From the NCBI RefSeq assembly GCF_042231085.1, contig NZ_CP102579.1: a stretch of DNA of 64,000 nucleotides, one strand, 5' to 3'. Shown here piece by piece: positions 1-28,120 of the stretch. The notes beneath the pieces were generated by a model that was given only the letters and a program-made list of their open reading frames with translations, searched no databases and was not told where the DNA came from. Numbering within the stretch: the stretch's first letter is position 1; each line of letters starts with the position of its first letter. Made by a program: the position numbers and the translations under genes. This stretch comes from Corallococcus interemptor (GTDB lineage Bacteria; Myxococcota; Myxococcia; Myxococcales; Myxococcaceae).

Positions 1-668
1 CGGTAGTCGAAGTCCAGCGGCACGGGGCGCTCGGAGCTGCGCACCGTGGCCACCTCGCGGCCGGTGAGCTTCTCCAGGCTCTGCTCGATGACGTGCGTGT
101 CGCCCAGCGTGGCGGACATCAGCAGGAACTGCGTCTTGGGCAGCGCCAGCAGCGGGATCTGCCAGGCCACCCCGCGCTCCTTGTCGGAGTAGTAGTGGAA
201 CTCGTCCATCACCACCGCGTCCACGCGCGCGGACGCGTCACGCAGCGCGAGGTTCGACAGGATCTCCGCCGTGCAGCAGAGGATGGGCGCCTCGCGGTTG
301 ATGGACGCGTCGCCCGTCAGCATGCCCACGTTCTCCGGGCCGAAGGCCTTGGAGAGCGCGAAGAACTTCTCGTTCACCAGCGCCTTGATGGGGCACGTGT
401 AGAACGACACCTTGCCCTCGGCCATGGCCTTGAAGTGGAGCGCCATGGCCACCAGCGACTTGCCGGAGCCCGTGGGCGTCTTGAGGAACAGGTGCTTGTC
501 GCTGAGGAGCTCCAGGATGGCCTCCTCCTGGGCGGAGTACAGGCTCAAGCCGTTCGTGGCCACGTAGCTCACGAAGCGGTTGAGGATCTCGTCGGCGTCG
601 AGTGGGGGCTCGCCGGGCTTGGGCAGCAGGGCGGCGAGCGGGGCGCGGGTGTCGGCGGAGGCACTCAT
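1..668 (-). CDS. DExH-box (SF2) helicase, N-terminal part; gene continues beyond window start
   Basis: Minus-strand frame starting at ATG (cat 666-668) reads [11 protein letters not shown]...[10 protein letters not shown] (motif I)...DEFHYY (motif II DExH)...MSATLGD (motif III). It runs off the window edge, so it is absent from the ORF track. It sits 51 nt downstream of the preceding minus-strand gene on the same strand. Confidence 0.8.
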
Positions 669-719: not shown

Positions 720-1154
720 TCAGCCGGTAACGTACAGTCCCACCGCGATGTGACCCTCCGTCAGGGGCGCTCCGGCCGCGGGGCGCTGCCAGCACACCCG
801 CCCCGCCTGCTCCGGCGACAGGCAGGGCACGTCCGTCACCTCCAGCGAGGCTCCGGCCAGGCGGGCCTTGCGCACGGCGGCGCTCCGCGTCAGGCCCAGC
901 AGCTCCGGCGCGGGGGGCGGTGCCGCCTCGGGGCCCTGCTGGACGAACACGGCCCGCACCTCGCCGGGGCCTCCGGGGGTGAAGTGCATCCCCGTCCCGT
1001 CCGCGGTGACCGCGCCGTGCAGCTCCAGCTCCACCGGCCCCAGCACGATGGGGCCGGCGCCGAGCCGCGCCTGGACCCGCGCGAGCGACTCACGCAGGTC
1101 CACCAGCAGGGCCTCCAGGTCGATGGCGTCACTCATCGCGCCAGGGGCCTCCAT
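720..1154 (-). CDS. hypothetical protein (144 aa), last small gene of the paralog operon; C-terminal half weakly PASTA-like
   Basis: ORF with GC3-rich codon usage, 19 nt after the upstream gene stop. Alternative start at M7 (cat 1134-1136). A small palindrome acggac-c-gtccgt lies in the 19-nt spacer. Confidence 0.55.
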   Translation of the reverse strand: MEAPGAMSDAIDLEALLVDLRESLARVQARLGAGPIVLGPVELELHGAVTADGTGMHFTPGGPGEVRAVFVQQGPEAAPPPAPELLGLTRSAAVRKARLAGASLEVTDVPCLSPEQAGRVCWQRPAAGAPLTEGHIAVGLYVTG

Positions 1155-1173: not shown

Positions 1174-1842
1174 TCACTTCAAGGGCTCGGCGGCCACGGT
1201 CTCCAGGACGGGCGAGCGGGTGAGGACTCCGGTGGGCGGGAGCTTCCCTCCGCCGGTCGTCTGAACGGTGAGCACCAGCTCGGTGCCGCGCGGCAGCAGC
1301 GTCCCCGGCTCGGCCGAGGCCGAGAGGACCAGGGCGGCGTCCGCCGCGCCGCTGGGGAACCGGTGGGGCACGCCGATGGCGGACAGCAGCGCCCGCGCGT
1401 CCCCCACCGTCTTCCCCACCACCGCCGGCACCACCACCAGCGCCTCCGCCTGGGGCGAGGGCGGCACCGGCACCACCCGGAACTTCAGCCGCGACTGCGC
1501 CGTCAGGCTGTAGGCGAAACGGTTGGTGTAGCTGGCGTCCAGGGGCGCGCCGTACATCTTCAGGCGCGTGCGCCCCTGCGTCCGCTCCTCCGAGGTGATG
1601 GACAGCGCCACGGCGATCTCCGCCTCGGCCTCGGGGATGTGGTACCAGGTCGGCCGGTAGCCGATGCGCTGCAGCTCCACCGCCAGGTCCTCGTCCGAGG
1701 CGTAGAGCTCGCGGATCCGCTCGATGGTCGCCGCGTCCAGCTCCCGCTGCGCCTCCGCCACGCCGCGGCCCACCGAGGAGATCAACGCGCCCAGCGGCGC
1801 GCTCAGCGCCTCCAACTGGGGGACGTCATTCGAATCCGCCAT
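1174..1842 (-). CDS. paralog-family protein (N-terminal helix motif ...GVAEAQRELD..., conserved ...LKFRVVPVPPSP block) fused to C-terminal PASTA-like domain
   Basis: 222 aa. Shares the 'AEAQ..LD' helix and 'VPxPP' block with the ORFs at 4189, 4798, 5393, 5906 and 2574. C-terminus reads VVPAVVGKTVGDARALLSAIGV..., typical of PASTA. 3-nt spacing to the upstream gene. Confidence 0.75.
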   Translation of the reverse strand: MADSNDVPQLEALSAPLGALISSVGRGVAEAQRELDAATIERIRELYASDEDLAVELQRIGYRPTWYHIPEAEAEIAVALSITSEERTQGRTRLKMYGAPLDASYTNRFAYSLTAQSRLKFRVVPVPPSPQAEALVVVPAVVGKTVGDARALLSAIGVPHRFPSGAADAALVLSASAEPGTLLPRGTELVLTVQTTGGGKLPPTGVLTRSPVLETVAAEPLK

Positions 1843-1845
1843 GGT

Positions 1846-2577
1846 TCAGCCCTCCATCGCCTGGCCAATGATCAACTGCACGGGGCCCGAAGCGAGCGGC
1901 TTGCCCGGCTCCGGCACCTGCCGCAGCACGCGGCCCCACTGCCCGGGCTCCTTGACGAAGAGCGGCATCGGGTCCACCCGCAGCCCCGCCTCCGCCGCGC
2001 GCCGCCGGGCCGCCGAGGCCGTCAGCCCCCGGAAGTCCGGCACCTCGCGGGCCGGCGCGTCGCCCGTCTCGGGCGCGGCGGGCGACTGCTCCACGAACTG
2101 GGCCTCCGCCTCCGTCACGCCCTCGGGCGTCGTCTCCATCCACCGCACGCGGACGGTGCTCAACCGCACCGTCGTCAGCGACGCGCGCACCGCTTCAATC
2201 TGCTGGCCCGCCGACTTCAGCTTGTCGGACAGCACCAGGGACGTGCCCTGCTCCAGGGCGGGCTCCTGGGTGGGCTCCACCGCCGCGGAGGACACGGCGC
2301 GCACGTCCTCCCTCGCGGGCTCCAGGACGACCATCGTCCCGTAGTCGATGAGGGTGCTGCTCATCTTCACCGGGAAGGTGGCCACCCCGGCGGAGCCCAG
2401 CCGGAGGTGGGAGCCGAAGGTGGCGCTGCTGACCTCCATCTCCAGCACGCCCGCCTCGTTCGTCACCCCGGTGTCGCGCAGCTCGAAGGTGCCCGTCTTC
2501 GCGGGGACCCACCACGCCACCTTCATTCCCGCCACGGGGACTCCCGTGGCCTTGTGGAACACGGCCCGGACCTTCAT
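1846..2577 (-). CDS. hypothetical protein: N-terminal Ig-like/carboxypeptidase-regulatory-like beta domain + C-terminal PASTA-like domain
   Basis: 243 aa. Start codon overlaps the upstream stop (ATGA at 2574-2577). C-terminus VPDFRGLTASAARRRAAEAGLRVDP...GPVQLIIG is PASTA-like. No signal peptide. Confidence 0.7.
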   Translation of the reverse strand: MKVRAVFHKATGVPVAGMKVAWWVPAKTGTFELRDTGVTNEAGVLEMEVSSATFGSHLRLGSAGVATFPVKMSSTLIDYGTMVVLEPAREDVRAVSSAAVEPTQEPALEQGTSLVLSDKLKSAGQQIEAVRASLTTVRLSTVRVRWMETTPEGVTEAEAQFVEQSPAAPETGDAPAREVPDFRGLTASAARRRAAEAGLRVDPMPLFVKEPGQWGRVLRQVPEPGKPLASGPVQLIIGQAMEG

Positions 2578-3239
2578 CGAGCCACCTCACAGGACAGCGC
2601 CAGCGTCCGCGACGCGGCGTCCACCGTGAGCGCCAGGATGCGGGCCTGCTCGCCGGCCGCCACGCGCAGCGTCGTCCGCGCCTCCCCCGCCGCGTCCGTC
2701 CTCACCACCGCGAGCACCACGTCCGTGCCCGCCAGCGGCGCCACGCCGGACAGCGACTGCGTCGTCCTGCGGTCCAGGTTGAACTCCACCTCCACGCCCG
2801 GCAGGGCCTCGCCCGCAGCGTTGCGCACGCGCACCACCACGCCCGGCACGCCCCCGTCGCCGATGACGCAGCGGGCGTCCAGCACCACCGGAGGCAGGCC
2901 CTCGTTGGCCGGCACCGCGACGAAGCTGCCGCGGATCACGCTGACGATCTCCGTCTTCGTCTGCGAAGAGGCCACGTCCGCCAGCCGCACGGGCCGCATC
3001 TTCAATATCTTCCCGTTGGCCACCGGTCCGGTGGTGGTGGTGGACGTCTCCACCCGCAGGTCCATCCGCAGCTCGAACTCCAGCTTCGGCACGTAGTAGG
3101 TGAACTGCCGGCCGGGCGCGCCCGCCGCGGAGATGCCCCCCAGCTCCTGCTGGGCCTTCGCCAGGCCGTCGGCCAGCTCGAGCAGGTACTCGTCCAGCGT
3201 GCCGAACAACTCCTGCGCCTGCTGTGTCGTGTCACTCAT
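2574..3239 (-). CDS. paralog-family protein with extended C-terminal beta-rich domain
   Basis: Start taken at M14 of the track ORF (cat 3237-3239), 2 nt after the upstream stop (tca 3232-3234). N-terminus LLELADGLAKAQQELG, and YYVPKLEFELRMDLRV matches the family 'FYQFVETIIEVKM' block. Confidence 0.7.
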   Translation of the reverse strand: MSDTTQQAQELFGTLDEYLLELADGLAKAQQELGGISAAGAPGRQFTYYVPKLEFELRMDLRVETSTTTTGPVANGKILKMRPVRLADVASSQTKTEIVSVIRGSFVAVPANEGLPPVVLDARCVIGDGGVPGVVVRVRNAAGEALPGVEVEFNLDRRTTQSLSGVAPLAGTDVVLAVVRTDAAGEARTTLRVAAGEQARILALTVDAASRTLALSCEVAR

Positions 3240-4170
3240 CCCGCGCTCCCTGGCGCCCGCGTTCCCGCCGCGCGTCACGTGCCGTGTCGCGCGCGTCCAT
3301 GTCGTCCATGCCCATGCCGGCGCGCTCCATCTCCATGTCCATCTGCTGCTCCATGGACTCCATGTCCATGCCGGCCATCGCCAGTCCGCGCATCATCAGG
3401 GCCTCGGTGTCCAGCGAGCGGGGATCCAGCCCCCGAAGCTCGCGCGCCACCGCCACCCCCTTCTCCACCTTCCCTATCGTGAGCCCGCCGCGCCCCCCCA
3501 GGGCCCGTCCCACCTGCCCGAGCGAGGGCAGCGTCTGGCCCTTCTCCAGCGCGAGGGGCCTGCGCGCCACCGAGCGTGCCTCCTCCGCCGCGTCCGCCAG
3601 CCGCCGGGTCGCGGACCCCAGCTCCCCCAGCTTCATGCGGCCCCGGCCCGGAGACTCCAGGGCGCGCTCCGCCAGCCGCGTGGCCAGCTTCGCGCGCTCA
3701 CGCGCCTTGCGCGCCCACTGCTGGCGCAGCGTCTGCTGCTTCTGCGCCTGACGCCGGGCCGCCTTCCCCGCCTGCAGGCGCTCGCGGCGCAGCTCCTCCA
3801 CCCGCTCGGCCTCCTCCGCCTCCGTCCGGCGCCGGGCGTACAGCTTCTGCTCCAGCAGCCGCCGCGCGGTGTCCCGCTCGTGCTGCTTGCGCTCCGCGAT
3901 GCGCGACTCCGGAGTGTGCTGGACGACGGGGAACTGCTTCGCCAGCCGCTCGTCCACGGGCGCCTCCTGCACGCCGCTCAGCGCCTTCATCGTGTCTTCG
4001 AGCTGCCGGCGCTCCTTCAGCAGCGCCGCCAGCTCCGGGTCGCTCGCGGCCACCTGCTCCAGCGAGGGCACGGGCGTGTCCGCTCCCGGAGCAGGAGCGG
4101 ACGCGCCAGCGGCGTCGGAGGCCCCGGCGGCGTCCTCCTCCAGCAGGTCTTCCCAACGGACGTGTGACAT
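3232..4170 (-). CDS. highly charged (R/E/A/Q-rich) coiled-coil protein with Met-rich C-terminal tail
   Basis: 312 aa with GC3-rich codon usage. 18 nt downstream of the 4189 gene. C-terminal MMRGLAMAGMDMESMEQQMDMEMERAGMGMDDMD. Confidence 0.65.
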   Translation of the reverse strand: MSHVRWEDLLEEDAAGASDAAGASAPAPGADTPVPSLEQVAASDPELAALLKERRQLEDTMKALSGVQEAPVDERLAKQFPVVQHTPESRIAERKQHERDTARRLLEQKLYARRRTEAEEAERVEELRRERLQAGKAARRQAQKQQTLRQQWARKARERAKLATRLAERALESPGRGRMKLGELGSATRRLADAAEEARSVARRPLALEKGQTLPSLGQVGRALGGRGGLTIGKVEKGVAVARELRGLDPRSLDTEALMMRGLAMAGMDMESMEQQMDMEMERAGMGMDDMDARDTARDARRERGRQGARDE

Positions 4171-4188: not shown

Positions 4189-4779
4189 TCAGGTGACGTT
4201 GCCCACGGCGGTGTCGATCTTCCCGCTGACGGCCTCGCCCTCCGCGGTGCCCTTGAGGCCCTTGGCGATCTCCGCGCAGATCTGCTGGAGCGCCGCCGGA
4301 GGGGGAATGGGCACCAGCTTGGTGCGGATGAGGCTCGAGCCCTCGGCGGAATAGCTGTACTTCTGCGAGTGCTTGGCCGTGACGGTGGTGACGTGGCTCT
4401 TGTGGCCCTTCACCAGCGTGGTGAGGATGCCCTTGTCGCGGTCCACCTTGCGGTCTCGCGTCTGGGTCGAGTCGTCCGTGGACTCGTGCATGGAGATCTC
4501 CATCTTCACTTCGATGATGGTCTCCACGAACTGGTAGAACGTGGGCGTGAAGCCGAGCAGGAGCAGCGGGTACTCGGTGGTCCCCAGCTTCACGAAGCCG
4601 GCCCCGTCCCGCACGGCGTTGCCGCTGTCGTCGATGCGGTAGCCCGCCATGAGCTGGGCGATCTTCAGCGAGGAGCTGTCCAGGGCGTACTGGGCATCCG
4701 CGATGGCGTTGCCCAGGTTGCGGACCATCTCCCCGAAGGGGACGTTGAGCAGATCCTGACCAATGGAGTTGGTAGGCAT
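4189..4779 (-). CDS. paralog-family protein F (196 aa), unknown function
   Basis: N-terminus LLNVPFGEMVRNLGNAIADAQYALD. Core GFTPTFYQFVETIIEVKMEISM. C-terminal block YSYSAEGSSLIRTKLVPIPPP. 18 nt after the upstream stop. Confidence 0.8.
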   Translation of the reverse strand: MPTNSIGQDLLNVPFGEMVRNLGNAIADAQYALDSSSLKIAQLMAGYRIDDSGNAVRDGAGFVKLGTTEYPLLLLGFTPTFYQFVETIIEVKMEISMHESTDDSTQTRDRKVDRDKGILTTLVKGHKSHVTTVTAKHSQKYSYSAEGSSLIRTKLVPIPPPAALQQICAEIAKGLKGTAEGEAVSGKIDTAVGNVT

Positions 4780-4797: not shown

Positions 4798-5370
4798 CTA
4801 CTTCGTGGTGGGCGTGGTGCCGGCCCTGGACGCGATGAGCGCGCGCACCCGCTCCTCGAAGAGGGCCGGCGGAGGCACCGGCACCAGCTTGGTGCGCAGC
4901 AGGCTGGAGCCCTCCACGCTGTAGTCGTACTTGCGCGTGTAGCTGGCGTCCACGGTCGTCACCACGGCCTGGGGCGCGCCGCCGCGCTTGAAGAGGCGCA
5001 GCCCGCCGGCCGTCCGCGAGGTGCTCTGCGTCGCCACCTTGCTCTCCGTGCTCTCCGTCATCTTGATGGCGATCTTCACCTCGATGATGGTGTCCACGAA
5101 CTGGTAGAAGTTGGGCGCGAAGCCCAGCTCCATCATGGACGAGGGCGTGCCCGCGAAGGACACCTTGGTGTCCACCCGGATGGGCTTGCCGGAGCCGTCG
5201 AGCTGGATGTTCCCGTCGGCGTCCCGCAGCAGCGCCTCGCCGCTCATCATCTCCGCGACGAGCATCCCGCTCTTGTCCAGCTCGAGCTGCGCCTCCGCGA
5301 TGGCGGTCGCCATCTCACGAATCATGTCCCCCATGGGGACGTTCAGCAGTTCCTGACCGACGTTGGGCAT
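4798..5370 (-). CDS. paralog-family protein E (190 aa), unknown function
   Basis: LLNVPMGDMIREMATAIAEAQLELD ... LGFAPNFYQFVDTIIEVKIAIKM ... YDYSVEGSSLLRTKLVPVPPP. Confidence 0.8.
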   Translation of the reverse strand: MPNVGQELLNVPMGDMIREMATAIAEAQLELDKSGMLVAEMMSGEALLRDADGNIQLDGSGKPIRVDTKVSFAGTPSSMMELGFAPNFYQFVDTIIEVKIAIKMTESTESKVATQSTSRTAGGLRLFKRGGAPQAVVTTVDASYTRKYDYSVEGSSLLRTKLVPVPPPALFEERVRALIASRAGTTPTTK

Positions 5371-5392: not shown

Positions 5393-5896
5393 TCAGGCGG
5401 AGGTATTGGTGGAGGCCGCGGGGAGCGGCGGCTGGGCGGCGATCTCGTTGAGCAACTGGTGCAGGCGCGCGGGCGGAGGCAGCGACACCAGCCGCGCGGC
5501 GATGGAGCTGGCGCCCTGCACCTCGAAGCCGTACTTGCGGCTGTACTCGGCGTTGACCGTCACGGAGAAGATGCCGGCCATGCCGCCCGTCGCGCCGCCG
5601 CCCACGGAGAACTCCGTGGACTCGCGGATGGTGAAGGTGAGCTTCGCCTCGAGCGTGGCCTCGGCGAAGGCGTAGAACGTGGGCGTGAAGCCGAGCGCGA
5701 GCAGGCTCCACAACTGCCCGTCGCCCAGGTCCACGGTGCGCTCGGACATGCGCTTGGCGATGTCCAGCGAGTTGACGTCCAGCGCGTGCTGCGCGTCCGC
5801 CACCGCGCGCCCGAGCCGCTCGATGAGCTCGGGCAGCGGCGCGTCCAGCACCGTCATCATCGCGCGCTGGCCCTGCGTGGTGTTGTTTCCGGGCAT
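5393..5896 (-). CDS. paralog-family protein D (167 aa), unknown function
   Basis: LPELIERLGRAVADAQHALD ... LGFTPTFYAFAEATLEAKLTFTI ... YGFEVQGASSIAARLVSLPPP. GGAG Shine-Dalgarno 5 nt upstream (minus strand). Confidence 0.8.
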   Translation of the reverse strand: MPGNNTTQGQRAMMTVLDAPLPELIERLGRAVADAQHALDVNSLDIAKRMSERTVDLGDGQLWSLLALGFTPTFYAFAEATLEAKLTFTIRESTEFSVGGGATGGMAGIFSVTVNAEYSRKYGFEVQGASSIAARLVSLPPPARLHQLLNEIAAQPPLPAASTNTSA

Positions 5897-5905
5897 GGGG
5901 ACTCC

Positions 5906-8002
5906 TTACGGGTACCAGCGTTCGAGGTAGTCGCCGATGGCCTGGAGGAACTGGGGCGGCGCGGGCACCGCCACCAGGCGGGCCTTGATGGTCGAGCTGC
6001 CGGACACGCTCATCTCGTACTTCACCGAAGCGTGCGCATCCACGTTGAGGGCGCGCAGCTCGCGCTCGGAGCTCTCCTCGCGGTCCGCGGACGGCTTGCC
6101 GGCGATGCGGTTGGCCGACAGCAGGAAGGCGGCGGGGTTGCTGGTGCCCAGCATGGTGCCGGAGGGGCCGGAGACGGTGACGATGTTGCCCGCGGACTGG
6201 GCCTGGAGGCCCGCGGCCAGCACGCCGGAGCTGGAGCCCGCCGTGATGGCGGCAGCCAGGTTGCGCGCCGTGTCCGCGGCCGTCACCCCCAGCGTGAACT
6301 GCCCCGGCTGCGGGGCGACGCCTGCCTCCACGGCCACCAACTGCACGTTGTCGATGACGACGGTGTCGCGCGGCTGGGGCGAGGCCGGCGGGCGGCCGTC
6401 GCCGAAGCGGCGGGCCACGCGGATGGAGCCCGCGGCGGACAGGGCCGGCGCGGTGGGCGTGCGCGCGAACAGGGTGAACAGGGCGTGGTCACCGGTGCCG
6501 TACAGGTAGACGCGGTCCCCGCGCGCGAAGGCGCCGAACGCGGTGTTGGCGTTGGCGTCGCGGATGGCGCGGGCCAGGTTGGCGGCGGTGGACTCCGCGG
6601 TGGCGCCCACCGCGAAGGTGGTGCCCTGGGACGCGGTGCCCTGGGTGAAGTCCGTGCCGCGGAAGGTGACGACGGCCGTGGTGGGCGCGTTCGCGGCGGC
6701 GCGCGTGCGCGGCACGATGCGGGCCTCCCGGTCCGTCCCCGTGGGGTCGAAGGCGGCCGTGGCCGCGCCGGTGCGGGCCACCAGCGACGCGGGCACGCCG
6801 GAGAAATGGAAGACGACGCGCCGGTTGGCCGCCAGGTCGGAGCTGCTGAAGTCGACCGTCGCGCCCATGCCCCGGGCCTTGAGCCTGCTGGCCGCCACGC
6901 CCCGCGACGTCAGCGCCCGCAGGACGAAGTCCGCGCGCCGCTGCGACAGGCGCTGGTTGTAGCCGGGGGCCGGCGGCGTGCGCTGATCCGCCCAGCCCTC
7001 CAGGTCCAGCGAGGCGGACGGGTGCTCCGCCAGCAGCGCCGCCACCGCGTCGAGGATGGCGGAGGGCTCGCGGTCCGTGCCGTAGGTGGTGGTGGGCACG
7101 TCGTGGATGTCGGTGTCGAAGTAGATGGCCCGGTTGCAGTCAGCGCCGGAGACGACGAGGAAGGCGGCCGGGTCCACCTGCTGCCCGATGTCCGCCAGCG
7201 CCGCGCCCAACGTCGCCGCGGTGCTGGTGTAGCGCGTGCCGTTGGTGGCCGGCAGCAGCAGCGCGGGCGCGGGCGTCACGCTGCCCAGCCGCGCGATGAC
7301 CAGGTTGTCGCCGGGCGCCGCCTGCGGCGAGGTCCGCACGGTGATGACCGAGCGGTTGATGGCGTAGAGGTCCGGGCGGTTGGTGCTGGCGGTGACGCCC
7401 GACTGCATCTCCCAGTCCATGAAGACGCCCTGCAGGTCCCCCGCGGCCTGGTTCGTCCAGACGGAGTTGTTGCGCAGGGCCACGAGCAGCTCCTGCGCCG
7501 TCTCCCACAGCGTGTCCTGGCGGGTGACCGGCAGGCCGCTGCTGTTGGGGCCCACGCCGCCGTCCAGCGCGTAGCTGGTGGTGCCCACCGTGAGGTGGCC
7601 CGGCGCGTTGGCCACCAACGCCAGACAGGCGTAGGGGGGAATGCCCTCGCCGTCCTGCACCGTGAGGGTGGCGCTGCCGCTGGCGGAGGACGTCTCGAGG
7701 CTGTACTCACTCGACTCGTCCTCGTTGTCGTAGTTGAAGTTGGCGCCCACGTCGATGGTGGTCGAGTAGTAGACGTTGAGGTTCACCTCCAGGTCGGCGT
7801 ACTGGAAGTGGTAGAAGGCCGGCCGCAACCCCAGGGCCAGCAGGTTCTGCGTCATGCCCGGCAGGACGGTCTGCCCCATGCGCAGCGTCTGATCCACGCT
7901 GTTGGTGTCCAGCTTGGTCTGGGCCTCGGCGATGGCGAGCCCCATGTCCCGGATGAAGTCGGAGATGTTGAGATCCGCGAGGATCTTCCCTGCTTTCGGC
8001 AT
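5906..8002 (-). CDS. paralog-family protein C (698 aa): family domain split by a ~500-aa Ala/Thr/Gly-rich insertion containing an OmpA-like peptidoglycan-binding domain
   Basis: N-terminus ILADLNISDFIRDMGLAIAEAQTKLD...LGLRPAFYHFQYADLEVNLNVYY. Internal NQRLSQRRADFVLRALTSRGVAASRLKARGMGAT...ANRRVVF is the OmpA C-terminal motif. C-terminus YEMSVSGSSTIKARLVAVPAPP. Confidence 0.8.
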   Translation of the reverse strand: MPKAGKILADLNISDFIRDMGLAIAEAQTKLDTNSVDQTLRMGQTVLPGMTQNLLALGLRPAFYHFQYADLEVNLNVYYSTTIDVGANFNYDNEDESSEYSLETSSASGSATLTVQDGEGIPPYACLALVANAPGHLTVGTTSYALDGGVGPNSSGLPVTRQDTLWETAQELLVALRNNSVWTNQAAGDLQGVFMDWEMQSGVTASTNRPDLYAINRSVITVRTSPQAAPGDNLVIARLGSVTPAPALLLPATNGTRYTSTAATLGAALADIGQQVDPAAFLVVSGADCNRAIYFDTDIHDVPTTTYGTDREPSAILDAVAALLAEHPSASLDLEGWADQRTPPAPGYNQRLSQRRADFVLRALTSRGVAASRLKARGMGATVDFSSSDLAANRRVVFHFSGVPASLVARTGAATAAFDPTGTDREARIVPRTRAAANAPTTAVVTFRGTDFTQGTASQGTTFAVGATAESTAANLARAIRDANANTAFGAFARGDRVYLYGTGDHALFTLFARTPTAPALSAAGSIRVARRFGDGRPPASPQPRDTVVIDNVQLVAVEAGVAPQPGQFTLGVTAADTARNLAAAITAGSSSGVLAAGLQAQSAGNIVTVSGPSGTMLGTSNPAAFLLSANRIAGKPSADREESSERELRALNVDAHASVKYEMSVSGSSTIKARLVAVPAPPQFLQAIGDYLERWYP

Positions 8003-8005
8003 GGT

Positions 8006-8554
8006 CTACCCCAAGGGTGCGGCGACGGGAGGAAGTGCGACGGCGATGTCGGGACGAACGGTGTCGGGACGGACGACCCAGTAGGCGTGACGGTCCTGCT
8101 CCAGCGTGATGCGGCGCGCGTCCACGTGCAGTCCGGTGCGCGCCCAGCCCAGCACCCGCTCCGACAGCGGGAGCCGCCCGGCGCCGGCCAGCGCCACCGC
8201 GGACTCCAGCCGCGTGCGCGCCTCGGCCAGGCGCCCCAGCTTCGCCAGCGCCAGGCCGTGCCGCTCGTGGTGCGCGGCCAGGTCCTGCCGGGCCAGGTCG
8301 CTCGTGGGAGGCTGCTGCTGGTAGTGGGCCTCCACGCGCAGGCAGAAGGAGATGACGGCCTCGTGGGCCCCCGAGCGCTCCAGCGACTCGAGCACGCACC
8401 ACGCATAGTGGCGCTGGCAGACGTCGGAGCCGCCCTGGAGCGCGGCCAGCCGCAGCGCCTCCCGGTAGTGGCGCAGCGCCTCGTCATGCCGGCCGGCCAG
8501 CGCGAACACCTTGCCCTGCTCCGCCACGCGGAAGTGCAGCGCGAGCGAGCTCAC
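8006..8554 (-). CDS. TPR-like helical protein (start GTG overlapping upstream stop, GTGA)
   Basis: Helical repeat sequence ...GRHDEALRHYREALRLAA...LAKLGRLAEARTRLESAVALAG. The N-terminal 160 aa of the track ORF is low-complexity and overlaps the 8551..9633 gene, so I trimmed the start to GTG 8552-8554. Confidence 0.5.
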   Translation of the reverse strand: MSSLALHFRVAEQGKVFALAGRHDEALRHYREALRLAALQGGSDVCQRHYAWCVLESLERSGAHEAVISFCLRVEAHYQQQPPTSDLARQDLAAHHERHGLALAKLGRLAEARTRLESAVALAGAGRLPLSERVLGWARTGLHVDARRITLEQDRHAYWVVRPDTVRPDIAVALPPVAAPLG

Positions 8555-9633
8555 TGGGACACCAGCGACGTCCGCGTGCCCCGCGCGCGCAGCTCCGCGA
8601 CGAGCCAGCGCGCGCGCGTGTCCCCCACCGTGGCCTGGAAGGTATGCGGCAGCCGGGAGAGCGCGGTGCGCGCCTCGTTGGCTTGCAGCCCCAGCCCCGA
8701 AGACAGCAGCTCCGCGGCCACGGCGGGGTCCTTCGAGTCCTCCACCGTCAGGCGGAAGCTGCGGAAGTTGATGAGCTGCACGGCCAGCTTCGCGCCCGCG
8801 GCCTCCAGGGGCGCGGTGCGCGCCACCACGTCCGCGCGCGACAGCCCCGTGTGCAGCACCACCGGCAGCCGCTTGAGCACCTTCGGCACCAGCGCCGGGG
8901 GCATGCCCGTCTCCCGCACCAGCAGCTCCGGGAAGCCGGCGTCGGCGGGGGCCTCCAGGAGGCTGACGTCGAAGCGCTGGAAGGCGTGATCCAACAACCG
9001 CACCCCACCCCGCGCTCCCAGCTCCCGCCACACGCGCTCCGCCTGCTCGTGCGAGAGGTCCCGGGCCACCAGCGGCGGCTCGCCCGGCGTCACGCCCTGC
9101 GCCTCCAGCACCGAGCGGACCGTCGCGAGGCTGACCGTTTCCGTGGCGAAGACGTCATAGCGGGCGGTGGGCGGATGGCTGGCGTCCACCTCCGCGCCCA
9201 GCGCGGCGAAGCGCTCCCGGAGCGCGTCCACCGTGGCCTGGGACACGGAGCCGACCACCGTGGGCGGCGTGGCGCAGAGCGCCGAGGCGGCGTCCGCCAG
9301 GGGACAGCCCAGGACGGCCGCCAGCTCCGCGCAGACCTCGCGGAAGCGCCCGCCGTCACGCACGTACAGCGCCACGTCGTAGGTCTGCCCGGCGGGAGGA
9401 GGAAGGGGCGCGTCATCCGGCTCCACGACCACGCGCAGGCCCGCGTTGCCCAGCACCTCCGACAGGCCCCGGGCGAGGTCCTCCGGCAGGCCCGACGCCA
9501 GCACCGCGGGGGCGCGGAACAGCCTCGCGGCGAGCTCCGCCGGCGGCAGATCGAAGTGGGGCACCAGGGCGCGGACGATGCTCGCGGAACCCCGGTGCAA
9601 GGAGAGAACAGTGACGCGCCGTGAACCGTCCAT
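8551..9633 (-). CDS. first gene of operon: hypothetical protein with three ~70-aa internal repeats (L7/L12 C-terminal-domain-like by eye)
   Basis: 360 aa, GC3-rich. Repeats such as ...LPPAELAARLFRAPAVLASGLPEDLARGLSEVLGNAGLRVVVE and ...PALVPKVLKRLPVVLHTGLSRADVVARTAPLEAAGAKLAVQL. A divergent promoter region lies upstream. Confidence 0.65.
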   Translation of the reverse strand: MDGSRRVTVLSLHRGSASIVRALVPHFDLPPAELAARLFRAPAVLASGLPEDLARGLSEVLGNAGLRVVVEPDDAPLPPPAGQTYDVALYVRDGGRFREVCAELAAVLGCPLADAASALCATPPTVVGSVSQATVDALRERFAALGAEVDASHPPTARYDVFATETVSLATVRSVLEAQGVTPGEPPLVARDLSHEQAERVWRELGARGGVRLLDHAFQRFDVSLLEAPADAGFPELLVRETGMPPALVPKVLKRLPVVLHTGLSRADVVARTAPLEAAGAKLAVQLINFRSFRLTVEDSKDPAVAAELLSSGLGLQANEARTALSRLPHTFQATVGDTRARWLVAELRARGTRTSLVSQ

Positions 9634-9671: not shown

Positions 9672-9924
9672 CGTTGCGCGACGTGCGACGCGTTTTCCAA
9701 TGTCTGAGAACTGCCTGCTCGCCGCTCTGGATCCAACCTGCTCCGTCATGACGCGGGCTGAAACATGCCCGTGAAACATCCTGGTGGGTCTGGCCGGCGG
9801 GTCGCGCCTGACGGCCTGCCTGCCCGGTCCGTGCTCACGGGCACACTGGCAACGGCTGAAGCGCGCATGGCCATGGCTGGAGGGCCTCCCCATCCTGCCC
9901 CAGCGACATTCACGGGGGTTGGAC

Positions 9925-10554
9925 ATGCGGACAGCGAAATTCTGGATGGGGACGCTGCTGGCGGGGGCGCTGGCGCTGGGCTACGGGTGTGGGAGCGAAG
10001 TGAAGGAGCCGACGCCGCAGGACGCGCCACAGCAGCAGGCCCCGGACTCGGGCACCGACGCGGGCGTGGTGCTGACGCTCAACGACGCGCAGATCGCCCG
10101 CATCCTGCAGGTGGCCAACGAGGGCGAGGTGATGCTGGGCCAGTACGCCGCGCCGCTCGCCACCGAGCAGGCCGTGCGCGACTTCAACAACCAGATGGTG
10201 ACGGAGCACACCGCGGTGAAGCAGCGCCTGGACGCGCTCATCGCGGCCCAGGGCATCACGCCCGAGGACAGCGCGCTGAGCCTCCAGTTGCAGGCGGAGG
10301 TCCAGGAGATGATGCGCATCCTCTCCAGTCCGGAGGCTCCGCCCGTCGGCACCGGGCTCGACCTGGCGCTGATCAGCGCGCAGCTCAACGCGCACGCGCG
10401 CGTCGCCTTCCTCGCGGACAGCCTGCTGTCGCCGCAGATCAAGAACACCGCCCTGGCGCAGGAGGCGACCGCCGAGCGGCAGGCCGTGCAGATGCACATC
10501 AACTCCGCGAGCGACATCCAGTCGAACATCGTGCTGCCGCCCACCACGCCGTAG
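9925..10554 (+). CDS. DUF4142-family lipoprotein
   Basis: Start trimmed to MRTAKFW... with lipobox LALGYGC. Body LNDAQIARILQVANEGEVMLGQYAA...FNNQMVTEHTAVKQRLDAL matches the DUF4142 signature. Confidence 0.8.
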   Translation: MRTAKFWMGTLLAGALALGYGCGSEVKEPTPQDAPQQQAPDSGTDAGVVLTLNDAQIARILQVANEGEVMLGQYAAPLATEQAVRDFNNQMVTEHTAVKQRLDALIAAQGITPEDSALSLQLQAEVQEMMRILSSPEAPPVGTGLDLALISAQLNAHARVAFLADSLLSPQIKNTALAQEATAERQAVQMHINSASDIQSNIVLPPTTP

Positions 10555-10716: not shown

Positions 10717-12357
10717 ATGCAAAAGCCAACCGAACCGACCTCCGCGCAGAGCGAGCCGTTGACGACGGGACGGATCCTGCGCTCCACGTATGAGATTGGC
10801 ACCGTGCTGGGCAAGGGTGGGATGGGCGCGGTGTTCCTCGCGCGCCACCTGCGCCTGCCGGGCAAGCAGGTCGCCATCAAGGTGCTGCACGGCGCGGAGG
10901 CGCTGTCGGAAGAGGTGGCGGTGCGCTTCCGGCGCGAGGCGGAGATCGCCTCGCGGCTGGGGCACCCGAACATCGTGGAGGTGCTGGACTTCGACACCCT
11001 GGAGGACGGCACGCCCTTCATGGTGATGGAGTACCTGCGCGGCGAGGGCCTGTCGCGCCGGCTGCGCAAGCAGAAGCAGTTGCCGCTGGAGGAGGTCTTC
11101 TCCATCACGCGGCAGATGGGCGCGGCGTTGCAGGCGGCGCACCGCGCGGGCGTGGTGCACCGCGACCTGAAGCCGGGCAACGTGTTCCTCGTGCCCACGG
11201 AGGCGGGCGGCGTCGTGGGCGAGCGCGTGAAGCTGCTCGACTTCGGCATCTCCAAGCTCGTGGACTCGCGCACGGTGCAGACGCTGGACTCCGTGCTGAT
11301 GGGCACGCCGCAGTACATGGCCCCGGAGCAGGCCATGGGCCACAACAGCAACGTGGACGCGCGCACGGACCTCTTCGCGTTCGGCTGCATCGTCTACGAG
11401 ATGCTCGCGGGCCGGCCGCCCTACTCCGGCGAGAACGTCGCGGAGCTCATCTACCAGATCGTCCACCTGGAGCCCCCGCCGCTCCTGACGCTGGCGCCCC
11501 AGACGCCGCCGCACGTGGTGGCGGCCATCTCCCGCGCGATGGCGAAGAGGCCGGAGGACCGCTACCCGGACGTCGGCGCGTTCATCCTGGAGCTGACGGG
11601 CAGCCCGCTCCAGACGCTCGCGGAAACGAAGCCCGAGCAGCGCTCGCGCCCCCCCCATCCCACGGCCCCGCCGTCCGCGCCGCGTCCGCCGGACCGCGAG
11701 GAGCACATCCCCACGGTGGGCATGCGCCCCCACGCCCCTTCCGGGCCCGAGACGGCGTCCCTGCCCGCGCAGCCGCTGGCCCACGCCCGTCCGAAGTGGC
11801 CGGTGGCCGTGGCCGTGGGGCTGGCGGTCATCGTCGCGTTCGCCGTCGCCTTCTTCTGGAAGCGCCCGGATGTGGCGCCGCCCGCCGCCGTCGTGGCGGA
11901 TCCGCCGGTCCCGCCGCAAGCCCGGCCCGCGGCGCCCGTCACCCCGCCGCCCGCCGTGGTCGTGGCGCAGCCGGTGGATCCGCAGCCGCCCGTGGACCCG
12001 GAGCCCCAGCAGCCACAGCCGACGGGGCCGGAGGAGCCCCGGCAGCCCACCGCGGAGCCGTCCACGGTGACGGCCAGGCCGAAGCCGCGCGGCACCCCGG
12101 AGTCCATGCCGGACAGCGTGCGCGAGGACCTGGCGGCGGCGCAGAAGGCGCTGGACGCGTCCAACACGTCGGAAGCGCTGCGTCACATCCGGCGCAGCCA
12201 GCGCACGAAGATCACCGGCCTGTCGTTCTCGCTGCTCACGCGCGTGTACTGCCAGCAGCACGACCTGGCGAACGCACGGGCGCAATGGACCCGCGTCCCG
12301 GCAACGGAACGTCCAAGGGTCCGACAATACTGTTCGCAGTACGATATCGACCTGTAG
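10717..12357 (+). CDS. Ser/Thr protein kinase with Pro-rich linker, one TM helix and C-terminal extracytoplasmic domain
   Basis: GKGGMGAVFLARH...AIK; HRDLKPGNVFL; DFGISK; APE. TM helix WPVAVAVGLAVIVAFAVAFFW. Confidence 0.9.
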   Translation: MQKPTEPTSAQSEPLTTGRILRSTYEIGTVLGKGGMGAVFLARHLRLPGKQVAIKVLHGAEALSEEVAVRFRREAEIASRLGHPNIVEVLDFDTLEDGTPFMVMEYLRGEGLSRRLRKQKQLPLEEVFSITRQMGAALQAAHRAGVVHRDLKPGNVFLVPTEAGGVVGERVKLLDFGISKLVDSRTVQTLDSVLMGTPQYMAPEQAMGHNSNVDARTDLFAFGCIVYEMLAGRPPYSGENVAELIYQIVHLEPPPLLTLAPQTPPHVVAAISRAMAKRPEDRYPDVGAFILELTGSPLQTLAETKPEQRSRPPHPTAPPSAPRPPDREEHIPTVGMRPHAPSGPETASLPAQPLAHARPKWPVAVAVGLAVIVAFAVAFFWKRPDVAPPAAVVADPPVPPQARPAAPVTPPPAVVVAQPVDPQPPVDPEPQQPQPTGPEEPRQPTAEPSTVTARPKPRGTPESMPDSVREDLAAAQKALDASNTSEALRHIRRSQRTKITGLSFSLLTRVYCQQHDLANARAQWTRVPATERPRVRQYCSQYDIDL

Positions 12358-26362: not shown

Positions 26363-26404
26363 GACATGCGCTCCCTCTTTTCTCGAATGGACCTCCCCTT
26401 GCGT

Positions 26405-28120
26405 ATGAAGGCAAAGAGCTGGGCGCTGGCCGCGCTGCTGGCCACCGCCGTCACCCCCGCCGCGTTCGCGCAGACCCCCACGAGCCCGCTCGTCCCGCTG
26501 GACCTGGAGCGCCTGCGCTTCACGCCGGCGGCGACGGACTCGATGCTGGTGGACACCGGCCGCGTGCTCCCCGAGGGCGGCTACCGCCTGCTCCTCATGG
26601 TCAACTACGAGCGCGGCATCCTGCTGCTCCAGGGCAGTGACGGGCTGGAGCGCTCCATCCTCCACTACCGCACCGCGGGCTGGCTGGCCGGCGCGTGGTC
26701 GCCGGTGGACCGGTTGGAGTTCTCCGCGAAGCTGCCCGTCATCATCGCGCAGGGCGGTCACGGCGCGGAGCAGTTGGTGGGCGTGAGCGAGCCGGACTCG
26801 TTCGGCCTGGGCACGCCGGAGCTGGGCGTGCGCTACGAGCTGCTGCGGCGCGAGGAAGGCGCGCCGGTGTTCCTGGGCCTGGGCCTGGACATCGGGATTC
26901 CGGGAGGCACGGCGGACGCGTTCGGCCGTCAGGCGGGCTGGGCCGGGTTCCAGTTCGCGCCCCGCGTGTCCATCAGCCGCGAGGTGGGCCCCGTGGTGCT
27001 GGGCGCCAACGCGGGCATCCGGATCCGCTCCAAGGAGGTCGAGCCGGGCCGCGACGTCGGCACGGAGTTGGAGCAGGGCGTGGTGGTGGCCACGCGCGGC
27101 AAGGGGCTGCGCGCCGAAGTCGCGCTGCAGGCCGCCGAGTCGCTCGTGGAGTCGGACCTGGCGCTGGAGCTGCTGGGCGGCGTGCGGCTGCCGGTGGGCG
27201 CGGGCTTCGAGGCCTTCGCTCTTGGCGGGCACGGCTTCACGGACATCCCGGGCACGCCGTCGTTCCGGCTGGCCGCGGGCATCGCGTACGCGAACGAGCC
27301 CGAGCCCGTGGACCGCTGCCGCACCGGCCGCAGCCACACGCCGGAGCAGTGCCCCAACGAGGACGACGACGGCGACGGCGTGGCCAACAAGGACGACCGC
27401 TGCCCGCTGGAGGCCGGCTCCGTGGAGAACAACGGCTGCCCGGACAAGGACACGGACGGCGACGGCGTGGTGGACCGCGAGGACCAGTGCCCGAACGAAG
27501 CCGGTCCGTCTTCCGAGCGCGGCTGCCCCGTGAAGGACACGGATGGTGACGGCGTGCCGGACAAGGACGACGCCTGCCCGAACGAGGCCGGTCCGTCTTC
27601 CGAGCGCGGCTGCCCCGTGAAGGACACGGATGGCGACGGCGTGCCGGACAAGGACGACGCCTGCCCGAACGAGGCGGGCCCCGCGTCCGAGCGTGGCTGC
27701 CCCGCGAAGCCGCAGCCCAAGCCCGAGGAGCCCAAGCCCCAGCCGCCTCCCGAGGAGAAGCCCGCGGAGGAGACGAAGTCGCCGCTGGAGCACATCGTCC
27801 AGTTCCCGGTGAACCAGTCGGAGTTCCAGGAGAACGAGCAGCAGCAACTGGATGACATCGTGGCCTACCTGAAGGCGAACCCGAAGCTGAAGGTCCGGAT
27901 CGAAGGCCACACGGACAACAGCGGCCCGGAGGAGGCCAACCGCACGCTGAGCCACCAGCGCGCGAACCGCGTGCGCGCGTACCTCATCCAGAAGGGCATC
28001 GCGGGCTCGCGGCTGGAGGCGAAGGGCTACGGCCCCGACCGTCCGCGCGTGTCCAACGAGACGCCGGAGGGCCGCAGCGCGAACCGCCGCGTGGAGTTCA
28101 TCCCCGTGACGGGGGGCTGA
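26405..28120 (+). CDS. OmpA-family outer-membrane protein with thrombospondin type-3 repeats
   Basis: Signal peptide MKAKSWALAALLATAVTPAAFA. DTDGDGVPDKDDACPNEAG repeats. C-terminal OmpA motif NRTLSHQRANRVRAYL...ANRRVEF. Confidence 0.85.
   Translation: MKAKSWALAALLATAVTPAAFAQTPTSPLVPLDLERLRFTPAATDSMLVDTGRVLPEGGYRLLLMVNYERGILLLQGSDGLERSILHYRTAGWLAGAWSPVDRLEFSAKLPVIIAQGGHGAEQLVGVSEPDSFGLGTPELGVRYELLRREEGAPVFLGLGLDIGIPGGTADAFGRQAGWAGFQFAPRVSISREVGPVVLGANAGIRIRSKEVEPGRDVGTELEQGVVVATRGKGLRAEVALQAAESLVESDLALELLGGVRLPVGAGFEAFALGGHGFTDIPGTPSFRLAAGIAYANEPEPVDRCRTGRSHTPEQCPNEDDDGDGVANKDDRCPLEAGSVENNGCPDKDTDGDGVVDREDQCPNEAGPSSERGCPVKDTDGDGVPDKDDACPNEAGPSSERGCPVKDTDGDGVPDKDDACPNEAGPASERGCPAKPQPKPEEPKPQPPPEEKPAEETKSPLEHIVQFPVNQSEFQENEQQQLDDIVAYLKANPKLKVRIEGHTDNSGPEEANRTLSHQRANRVRAYLIQKGIAGSRLEAKGYGPDRPRVSNETPEGRSANRRVEFIPVTGG
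27503..27676 (+). repeat. two near-identical 87-bp tandem copies (encode 29-aa TSP3 repeats), flanked by diverged copies (about 27416-27700)
   Basis: ggtccgtcttccgagcgcggctgccccgtgaaggacacggatgg(t/c)gacggcgtgccggacaaggacgacgcctgcccgaacgaggc(c/g)g repeated head-to-tail. Confidence 0.85.

Follow-up and report, generated by a model that had tools for sequence, protein, structure and literature searches.

A family domain split by a 543-residue insert with an OmpA-like peptidoglycan-binding module in a widespread operon of Corallococcus interemptor

We analyzed a stretch of 64,000 nucleotides from Corallococcus interemptor (RefSeq assembly GCF_042231085.1, contig NZ_CP102579.1), hereafter called the window, whose G+C content is about 72%. 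Near its start lies an operon read on the minus strand, and one of its genes, at positions 5906-8002, encodes a 698-residue protein in which a domain shared with neighbouring genes is interrupted by a long insert carrying an OmpA-like peptidoglycan-binding module. The open reading frame (ORF) starts with ATG and its G+C content at third codon positions (GC3) is 0.98 throughout. It is also the longest possible reading frame at the locus, so that a hidden upstream signal peptide or N-terminal extension is impossible. Full-length orthologs form 13 clusters in Corallococcus and Archangium (47-95% identity), the best being a Corallococcus protein named "OmpA family protein" (95% identity). The parts of the protein are listed below with the evidence for each, HMM standing for hidden Markov model.

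5906-8002, minus strand: split family member, 698 residues, first of the family paralogs in the operon (ORF list, GC3 0.98, 13 full-length ortholog clusters)
7709-8002, minus strand: N-block, residues 1-98, predicted N-terminal helix and first long beta-strand of the family domain (HMM positions 2-117; 41% identity to the Halomonas counterpart)
6080-7708, minus strand: insert, residues 99-641, 543 residues, at the predicted hairpin tip (separates the two HMM matches; conserved from end to end in orthologs)
6824-7063, minus strand: OmpA-like peptidoglycan-binding module, Pfam match at residues 314-393, folded unit about 290-404 (PF00691, PDB sequence matches, Foldseek)
6494-6640, minus strand: repeat module, copy 1, residues about 455-503 (hhalign of ortholog sub-alignments)
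6164-6322, minus strand: repeat module, copy 2, residues about 561-613 (hhalign of ortholog sub-alignments)
5906-6079, minus strand: C-block, residues 642-698, predicted second long beta-strand, VPAPP motif and C-terminal helix (HMM positions 119-170)

Three small ORFs follow the gene directly downstream on the same strand, with gaps of 9-22 nucleotides. They encode proteins of 167, 190 and 196 residues that are paralogous to each other and to both ends of the 698-residue protein, its N-block and C-block being similar by tblastn to the ORFs at 5393-5896, 4798-5370 and 4189-4779 (E-values from 1.9e-8 to 4e-3). A profile HMM of the family, derived from 98 diverse small members (alignment A3), matches the whole 698-residue protein with an E-value of 8.7e-24 and finds both halves of the domain: HMM positions 2-117 correspond to residues 2-98 (E 1.5e-11) and positions 119-170 to residues 642-693 (E 1.8e-10). 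The family profile is thus cut at a single contiguous point and no part of it is lost. The borders of the blocks were taken from these HMM domain coordinates; a MAFFT alignment with the small paralogs misplaced the C-blocks of the latter. The initial annotation of this DNA had described two intact terminal blocks separated by an Ala/Thr/Gly-rich region. Both blocks are indeed intact, and the insert contains 17.7% Ala, 10.3% Thr and 9.0% Gly. The sizes needed revision: the C-block, given as the last 50 residues, covers about 57, and the insertion, estimated at about 500 residues, has 543.

The same annotation had recognized an OmpA C-terminal signature in the insert. The quoted motif is present, NQRLSQRRADFVLRAL beginning at residue 349 and ANRRVVF at residue 392, and the check that had been set beforehand, a Pfam hit at the gathering threshold, gave 43.4 bits for PF00691 against a threshold of 27.2 (E 4.6e-11, residues 314-393). 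The PDB sequence search of the module returned YiaD, PorE and Pal, and NCBIfam and PDB sequence searches of the 698-residue protein returned only OmpA-like relatives such as these. In the full-length AlphaFold2 model, the confident part corresponds roughly to residues 231-430, with a predicted local distance difference test score (pLDDT) of 63-89. Foldseek aligned this region with Pal from Escherichia coli (PDB ID 1oap, template modeling score (TM) 0.79) and from Acinetobacter baumannii (PDB ID 4g4w, TM 0.82), with E-values of about 1e-6. The modelled module thus shows the alpha/beta fold of Pal and of the OmpA C-terminal domain.

In OmpA-like domains, the residues contacting diaminopimelic acid (DAP), which we take from the A. 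baumannii OmpA and Pal complexes to be the Asp of GxTD and the Arg of LSxxRA, correspond here to D339 and R356, neither of which varies among the 13 ortholog clusters. Across 25 homologs of many phyla, R356 is invariant together with N349, L352, G336, G368, G380 and R394, and residue 339 is Asp in 20 of the 25 and Ser in the remaining five. Taken alone, the OmpA module is unremarkable within a known family, and its region was the sole match in a PHROGs scan of the operon proteins. A second, unrelated protein with an OmpA domain is encoded elsewhere in the window by a 584-residue ORF (26366-28120, plus strand); residues 317-398 of the 698-residue protein match positions 27848-28099 by tblastn (E 1e-7).

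After the OmpA domain, the insert contains a duplicated module. Comparison of the ortholog sub-alignments 405-540 and 541-641 with hhalign gave a probability of 96.1% (E 3.1e-9), and a candidate third, degenerate copy precedes the OmpA domain (profile-profile comparison, E 0.02). The duplication is visible by profile-profile comparison; a BLAST self-comparison of the insert found no repeats. The module has no match in Pfam or among PDB sequences. Inserts of homologs from other phyla measure about 400-430 residues and the myxobacterial insert about 543-544; the surplus of about 120 residues is consistent with one extra copy of the module.

We next consider where the insert lies in the fold. The 196-residue paralog (4189-4779) was modelled by AlphaFold2 as a monomer, using a 98-sequence alignment. 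Its mean pLDDT is 70, reaching 84-92 over residues 21-90, and the model displays a 30-residue N-terminal helix, short strands, a very long beta-hairpin and a C-terminal helix. The hairpin is made of strands 81-110 and 130-158; its base is confident and its tip (residues 109-139) lies below pLDDT 50. Along the first strand, the hydrophobic residues I89, V91, M93, I95 and M97 alternate with charged or polar residues across the family. The break in the 698-residue protein corresponds to about residue 116 of this paralog, within the low-pLDDT tip, and the location of the insert at the tip of the modelled hairpin is well supported. The full-length model of the 698-residue protein (14 orthologs) has a mean pLDDT of 47, with 22-38 over both terminal blocks; we infer from homology, rather than from this model, that the N- and C-blocks would pair again into the hairpin.

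The initial annotation also proposed that the family fold tolerates a large insertion. This agrees with the clean split of the profile, the tip position, the occurrence of the same split in about 58 of the 80 genomes retained in the scan described below, and the insertions found elsewhere in the family. Indeed, many members of about 290-340 residues (P0137, P0144 and P0151 for example) match the profile in two stretches with a break near positions 56-68. Besides the hairpin tip, there is a second hot spot of insertion, which follows the N-terminal helix, and the family fold thus appears generally tolerant of insertions. Since the hairpin tip tolerates inserts of 324-569 residues, it should accept tags, which would give a handle for experiments.

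The other genes of the operon are as follows.

8551-9633, minus strand: first operon gene, 360 residues, repeats like the L7/L12 C-terminal domain (PF00542, 32.2 bits against a threshold of 25.9)
8006-8575, minus strand: small TPR protein, about 185 residues, exact start uncertain (TPR_12, 32.2 bits against 30.1)
5393-5896, minus strand: small family paralog, 167 residues (family HMM, E 4e-48)
4798-5370, minus strand: small family paralog, 190 residues (family HMM, E 2.6e-76)
4189-4779, minus strand: small family paralog, 196 residues, the one modelled (tblastn, family HMM, AlphaFold2 model)
3232-4170, minus strand: acidic, charged protein, 312 residues, with an N-terminal W-(E/Q)-D-L-L-(E/D)-(E/D) motif (N-termini of four lineages compared; local HMM matches in many loci)
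2574-3278, minus strand: divergent family-like protein, about 220-234 residues, with a weak Big_1-like region (family HMM on the counterpart in locus L003, E 5e-6)
1846-2577, minus strand: 243-residue protein, weak Ig-like (Big_1) N-terminal region and C-terminal PASTA domain (PASTA, 31.4 bits against 23.2)
1174-1842, minus strand: fifth family paralog, 222 residues, C-terminal PASTA domain (family HMM, E 9.3e-18; PASTA, 31.8 bits against 23.2)
720-1154, minus strand: last operon gene, 144 residues (sub-threshold PASTA, 19.7 bits against 23.2, and sub-threshold Trypco2, 19.5 against 24.2)

The L12-like gene gave nothing meaningful against PDB sequences. The motif of the acidic protein reads HVRWEDLLEED in the window (3232-4170, minus strand), NSWTSLLDD in locus L001 (10544-11248), VSWEDLLEED in L003 (11215-12219) and NTWQDLLDED in L005 (622-2190), and it could act as a peptide on which the TPR protein docks. 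Divergently transcribed from the operon are genes for a DUF4142 protein (9784-10554, plus strand) and a Ser/Thr protein kinase (10717-12357, plus strand; Pkinase, 157.6 bits), which are not conserved beside the Halomonas operon. Just downstream of the operon, the N-terminus of a DEAD/DEAH-type helicase with GSGKS and DEFH motifs (1-665, minus strand) runs off the window start. Further away, between about 34000 and 46000, the G+C content of the window falls from about 0.72 to 0.60-0.66, and no ORF passing a high-GC3 filter is found between 34850 and 45243. This part may be horizontally acquired or otherwise atypical.

The operon is conserved far beyond the myxobacteria. Its gene order in the window is the same in Halomonas alkalicola, in locus L003 and in a metagenome-assembled genome (MAG) of Anaerolineales: an L7/L12 C-terminal-domain-like repeat protein of about 365 residues, a TPR protein of about 190 residues, a "position-3" family member, further small paralogs, the acidic protein, the divergent family-like protein, the Ig-like/PASTA protein and the family protein with a PASTA domain. 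We scanned one genome for each species; this yielded 109 relatives, and 80 loci were retained. According to local HMMs, nearly every locus with enough flanking sequence possesses one L12-like gene, one TPR gene, five family paralogs, one "H" gene and one to three ORFs with PASTA. The 698-residue protein is encoded by the first of the five paralogs, a position that recurs in Halomonas and some 70 other loci. This first paralog is split, in about 58 of the 80 loci, by an insert of 324-569 residues matching an OmpA profile, always at HMM positions of about 95-120; the scan was seeded with motifs of the split subfamily, which biases the share of split operons upward. Pfam recovered the OmpA domain (E <= 1e-3) in all of 25 diverse split proteins. 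On the other hand, an uninterrupted protein of 186-290 residues occupies the same position in about a dozen complete operons, from Amphritea, Neptuniibacter, Acidobacteriota, Gemmatimonadota and a Mycobacteriaceae MAG; that of L003 is uninterrupted and has 238 residues. Both blocks of the Corallococcus protein are 41% identical to those of its Halomonas counterpart, but BLAST detects no similarity across the insert, which argues that the split is old and that the insert evolves faster than the core.

The operon occurs in Myxococcota, Proteobacteria, Bacteroidota, Gemmatimonadota, Nitrospirota and other phyla. It was also found in two bins labelled Actinobacteria, L031 ("uncultured Brachybacterium", with the OmpA-split form) and L078 (the Mycobacteriaceae MAG), which would be either genuine monoderm or mycolate occurrences or binning errors. 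It is chromosomal, with one match on a megaplasmid, and its flanks in Halomonas are housekeeping genes. A phage origin was rejected, tblastn against 50,697 phage records giving no match, as was identity with a known anti-phage defence system, PADLOC 2023 returning only one insignificant match (E 0.039). In L003 the operon adjoins a type III-A CRISPR-Cas locus (Csm/Cas10/Cas6, L003 1-5237), a neighbourhood seen once, and is followed by two paralogous proteins of about 650 residues with PG_binding_1 domains (L003 14919-20425). The PASTA-bearing protein of the Anaerolineales MAG (L005 3027-7667) is enlarged to 1,546 residues, with Laminin_G_3, pentaxin and Toxin_R_bind_N-like modules, and has no signal peptide. 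Altogether, the additional modules encountered in homologous operons are PG_binding_1, Big_2 and Laminin_G_3/pentaxin.

The family is large: one search gave at least 1,719 clusters (90% identity), and an exhaustive HMMER scan gave 1,211 representatives of 50%-identity clusters (E <= 1e-3). We found no Pfam family, NCBIfam model, solved structure or paper for this helix and long-hairpin family; its profile matches no PDB sequence, and our literature search retrieved no description of the family or of the operon. Relationships with three known families were considered and rejected. Aerolysin gave sub-threshold Pfam matches in only four of the 98 members (best E 0.078). DUF2489, on which the literature search found nothing, did so in 22 of the 98 members of alignment A3 (best E 0.0093) and may, judging from these profile matches, be a remote relative. 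Trypco2 (PF19631) matched no family member, the 144-residue last gene remaining at 19.5 bits for a threshold of 24.2. With Foldseek, weak matches to podovirus lower-collar proteins were observed (TM about 0.2).

Beyond the split and its position, the OmpA identity of the module with its conserved ligand residues and the conservation of the operon, all of which are observed, we propose that the 698-residue protein could be the subunit through which a hetero-oligomer of five paralogs binds the wall, the OmpA-like module being displayed at the tip of a hairpin and other subunits bearing PASTA domains. We give this proposal a probability of about one half. In such an assembly, the five paralogs of each operon would probably associate through their N-terminal helix, very long amphipathic hairpin and C-terminal helix. 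Only at the hairpin tip would added mass leave hairpin pairing undisturbed, and this is where the first paralog would carry its nested insert. The OmpA-like module would bind the DAP-containing stem peptide of peptidoglycan non-covalently through its conserved Asp/Arg pair; the insert would also hold one or two copies of a module of about 90 residues. With PASTA domains at the C-termini of other subunits, the assembly would present several wall-binding modules and could be tethered to the sacculus. A role as chaperone or assembly factor is possible for the small TPR protein, and export would follow a route other than Sec/Tat. Anchoring of the assembly to the cell wall, already suggested by the initial annotation, is plausible but unproven: the ligand residues of the OmpA module are conserved, and PASTA domains, in one lineage also PG_binding_1, occur in the same operon.

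What weighs against this proposal is the lack of any visible way out of the cytoplasm. OmpA-like, PASTA, PG_binding_1, Ig-like and Laminin_G_3/pentaxin modules are normally extracytoplasmic. However, no signal peptide, lipobox, transmembrane helix or other hydrophobic segment was found in any operon protein of the four lineages examined, and the 698-residue protein is no exception, although an OmpA-like domain would be expected outside the cytoplasm. Its family domain starts at residue 2, and at residues 2-17 in the split proteins. Pfam scans also revealed no nucleoside triphosphatase (NTPase), enzyme or secretion component in the operon. The co-occurrence of several wall-binding modules with a total absence of export signals constitutes a concrete and testable paradox, and resolving it would uncover either an unrecognised route of export and assembly or a cytoplasmic use of wall-binding domains. 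A more far-reaching and tentative hypothesis, to which we give clearly less credit than to the wall-binding subunit itself, is that the operon encodes an undescribed and widespread cell-envelope nanostructure made of five helix/long-hairpin paralogs, reaching its site without Sec/Tat signals, by self-export, an unknown route or lysis, and fastened by the nested OmpA-like module and PASTA. If true, it would be a wall-associated assembly of a new class, with a fold of its own.

One would also wonder whether these proteins ever leave the cytoplasm. The OmpA-like and PASTA modules could belong to a cytoplasmic sensor or scaffold that binds soluble wall precursors or recycled muropeptides, such as UDP-MurNAc-pentapeptide, anhydro-muropeptides or the cytoplasmic face of lipid II, and that reports or responds to wall damage. 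Several observations speak for this: all operon proteins of four lineages lack export signals, OmpA-like domains can bind a soluble precursor, as in the complex of Haemophilus influenzae Pal with a UDP-N-acetylmuramyl precursor (PDB ID 2aiz), and the operon lying beside a type III-A CRISPR-Cas locus would fit a role in stress or defence. We nevertheless consider this explanation rather improbable. The operon contains no output domain (kinase, nuclease, cyclase or NTPase), PADLOC brought nothing beyond its single insignificant match (E 0.039), and the CRISPR neighbourhood was encountered once, whereas the Halomonas operon lies among housekeeping genes. In addition, the Ig-like, Laminin_G_3/pentaxin and PG_binding_1 modules of homologous operons are typical of extracytoplasmic proteins, and the fixed number of five structural paralogs suggests a built structure.

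A slightly less probable explanation still is that the amphipathic hairpins oligomerise into membrane-inserting beta-barrel pores or tubes, with the OmpA-like and PASTA modules attaching the barrel to the wall of the producing cell or of a target, possibly once lysis has released it. Strands of about 30 residues with alternating hydrophobic and charged positions in the paralog model point in this direction, as do the Gly-rich hydrophobic tips of some paralogs (FSVGGGATGGMAGIF for example), the sub-threshold Aerolysin matches and the weak similarity to podovirus lower-collar proteins. TPR chaperones serve type III translocators, and by analogy the small TPR protein could be a chaperone. However, all these similarities lie below significance (best E of 0.078 for Aerolysin, TM of about 0.2 for the collar), the model is that of a monomer, the family appears in no phage record, and a folded 543-residue insert on the tip of the hairpin would need help to cross a bilayer. 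As for an artefact or a recent accident, be it mis-assembly, gene fusion or a degenerate insertion devoid of function, nothing speaks for it except that the architecture is unusual and that the full-length structure model is poor. The gene is a single ORF with constant GC3, 13 ortholog clusters conserve the whole length of its insert, the same split recurs in about 58 independent genomes of many phyla, the OmpA domain is found in 25 of 25 diverse split proteins and its core residues are invariant. This last explanation is thus refuted, and we grant it hardly any probability.

Coming back to the proposed wall-binding subunit, parallels can be drawn with several known systems. OmpA-like domains are the standard wall grip of the Tol-Pal system, flagellar stators, type VI and type IX secretion systems and Dot/Icm. 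Like the wall-anchored machines that involve Pal, MotB, TssL, PorE or the DotU-like component of Dot/Icm, the protein described here has a module (residues about 290-404) that passes the Pfam threshold, superposes on Pal with a TM of about 0.8 and keeps the Asp/Arg pair, and this module is borne by one subunit of a multi-protein set. In those machines, however, it is a C-terminal periplasmic domain, whereas here this standard wall-gripping module is nested at the predicted tip of a beta-hairpin, inside an uncharacterised structural domain. Moreover, the 698-residue protein has no signal peptide, lipobox or transmembrane helix, and its host family and operon are uncharacterised. The nested position, the signal-less context and an uncharacterised yet widespread host operon of about ten genes make the system worth following up.

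Flagellin offers another comparison, its conserved terminal blocks packing against each other and its variable centre being exposed on the outside; in the family studied here, the terminal blocks would likewise re-associate around a large, lineage-variable centre of 324-569 residues, and several homologous subunits are encoded side by side. The muropeptide- and wall-binding PASTA proteins (PBP2x, PknB/StkP) resemble the two operon partners of the window whose PASTA domain exceeds the Pfam threshold, a feature that recurs across phyla. Unlike these known proteins, which are membrane-anchored with extracellular repeats, a single PASTA domain is fused here to signal-less structural proteins. Finally, in beta-pore-forming toxins and in the lower-collar tubes of podoviruses long hairpins assemble into barrels. 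A long amphipathic beta-hairpin is the dominant element of the family in our monomer model, but the similarity to either is sub-threshold (E of at least 0.078 for Aerolysin, TM of about 0.2 for the collar).

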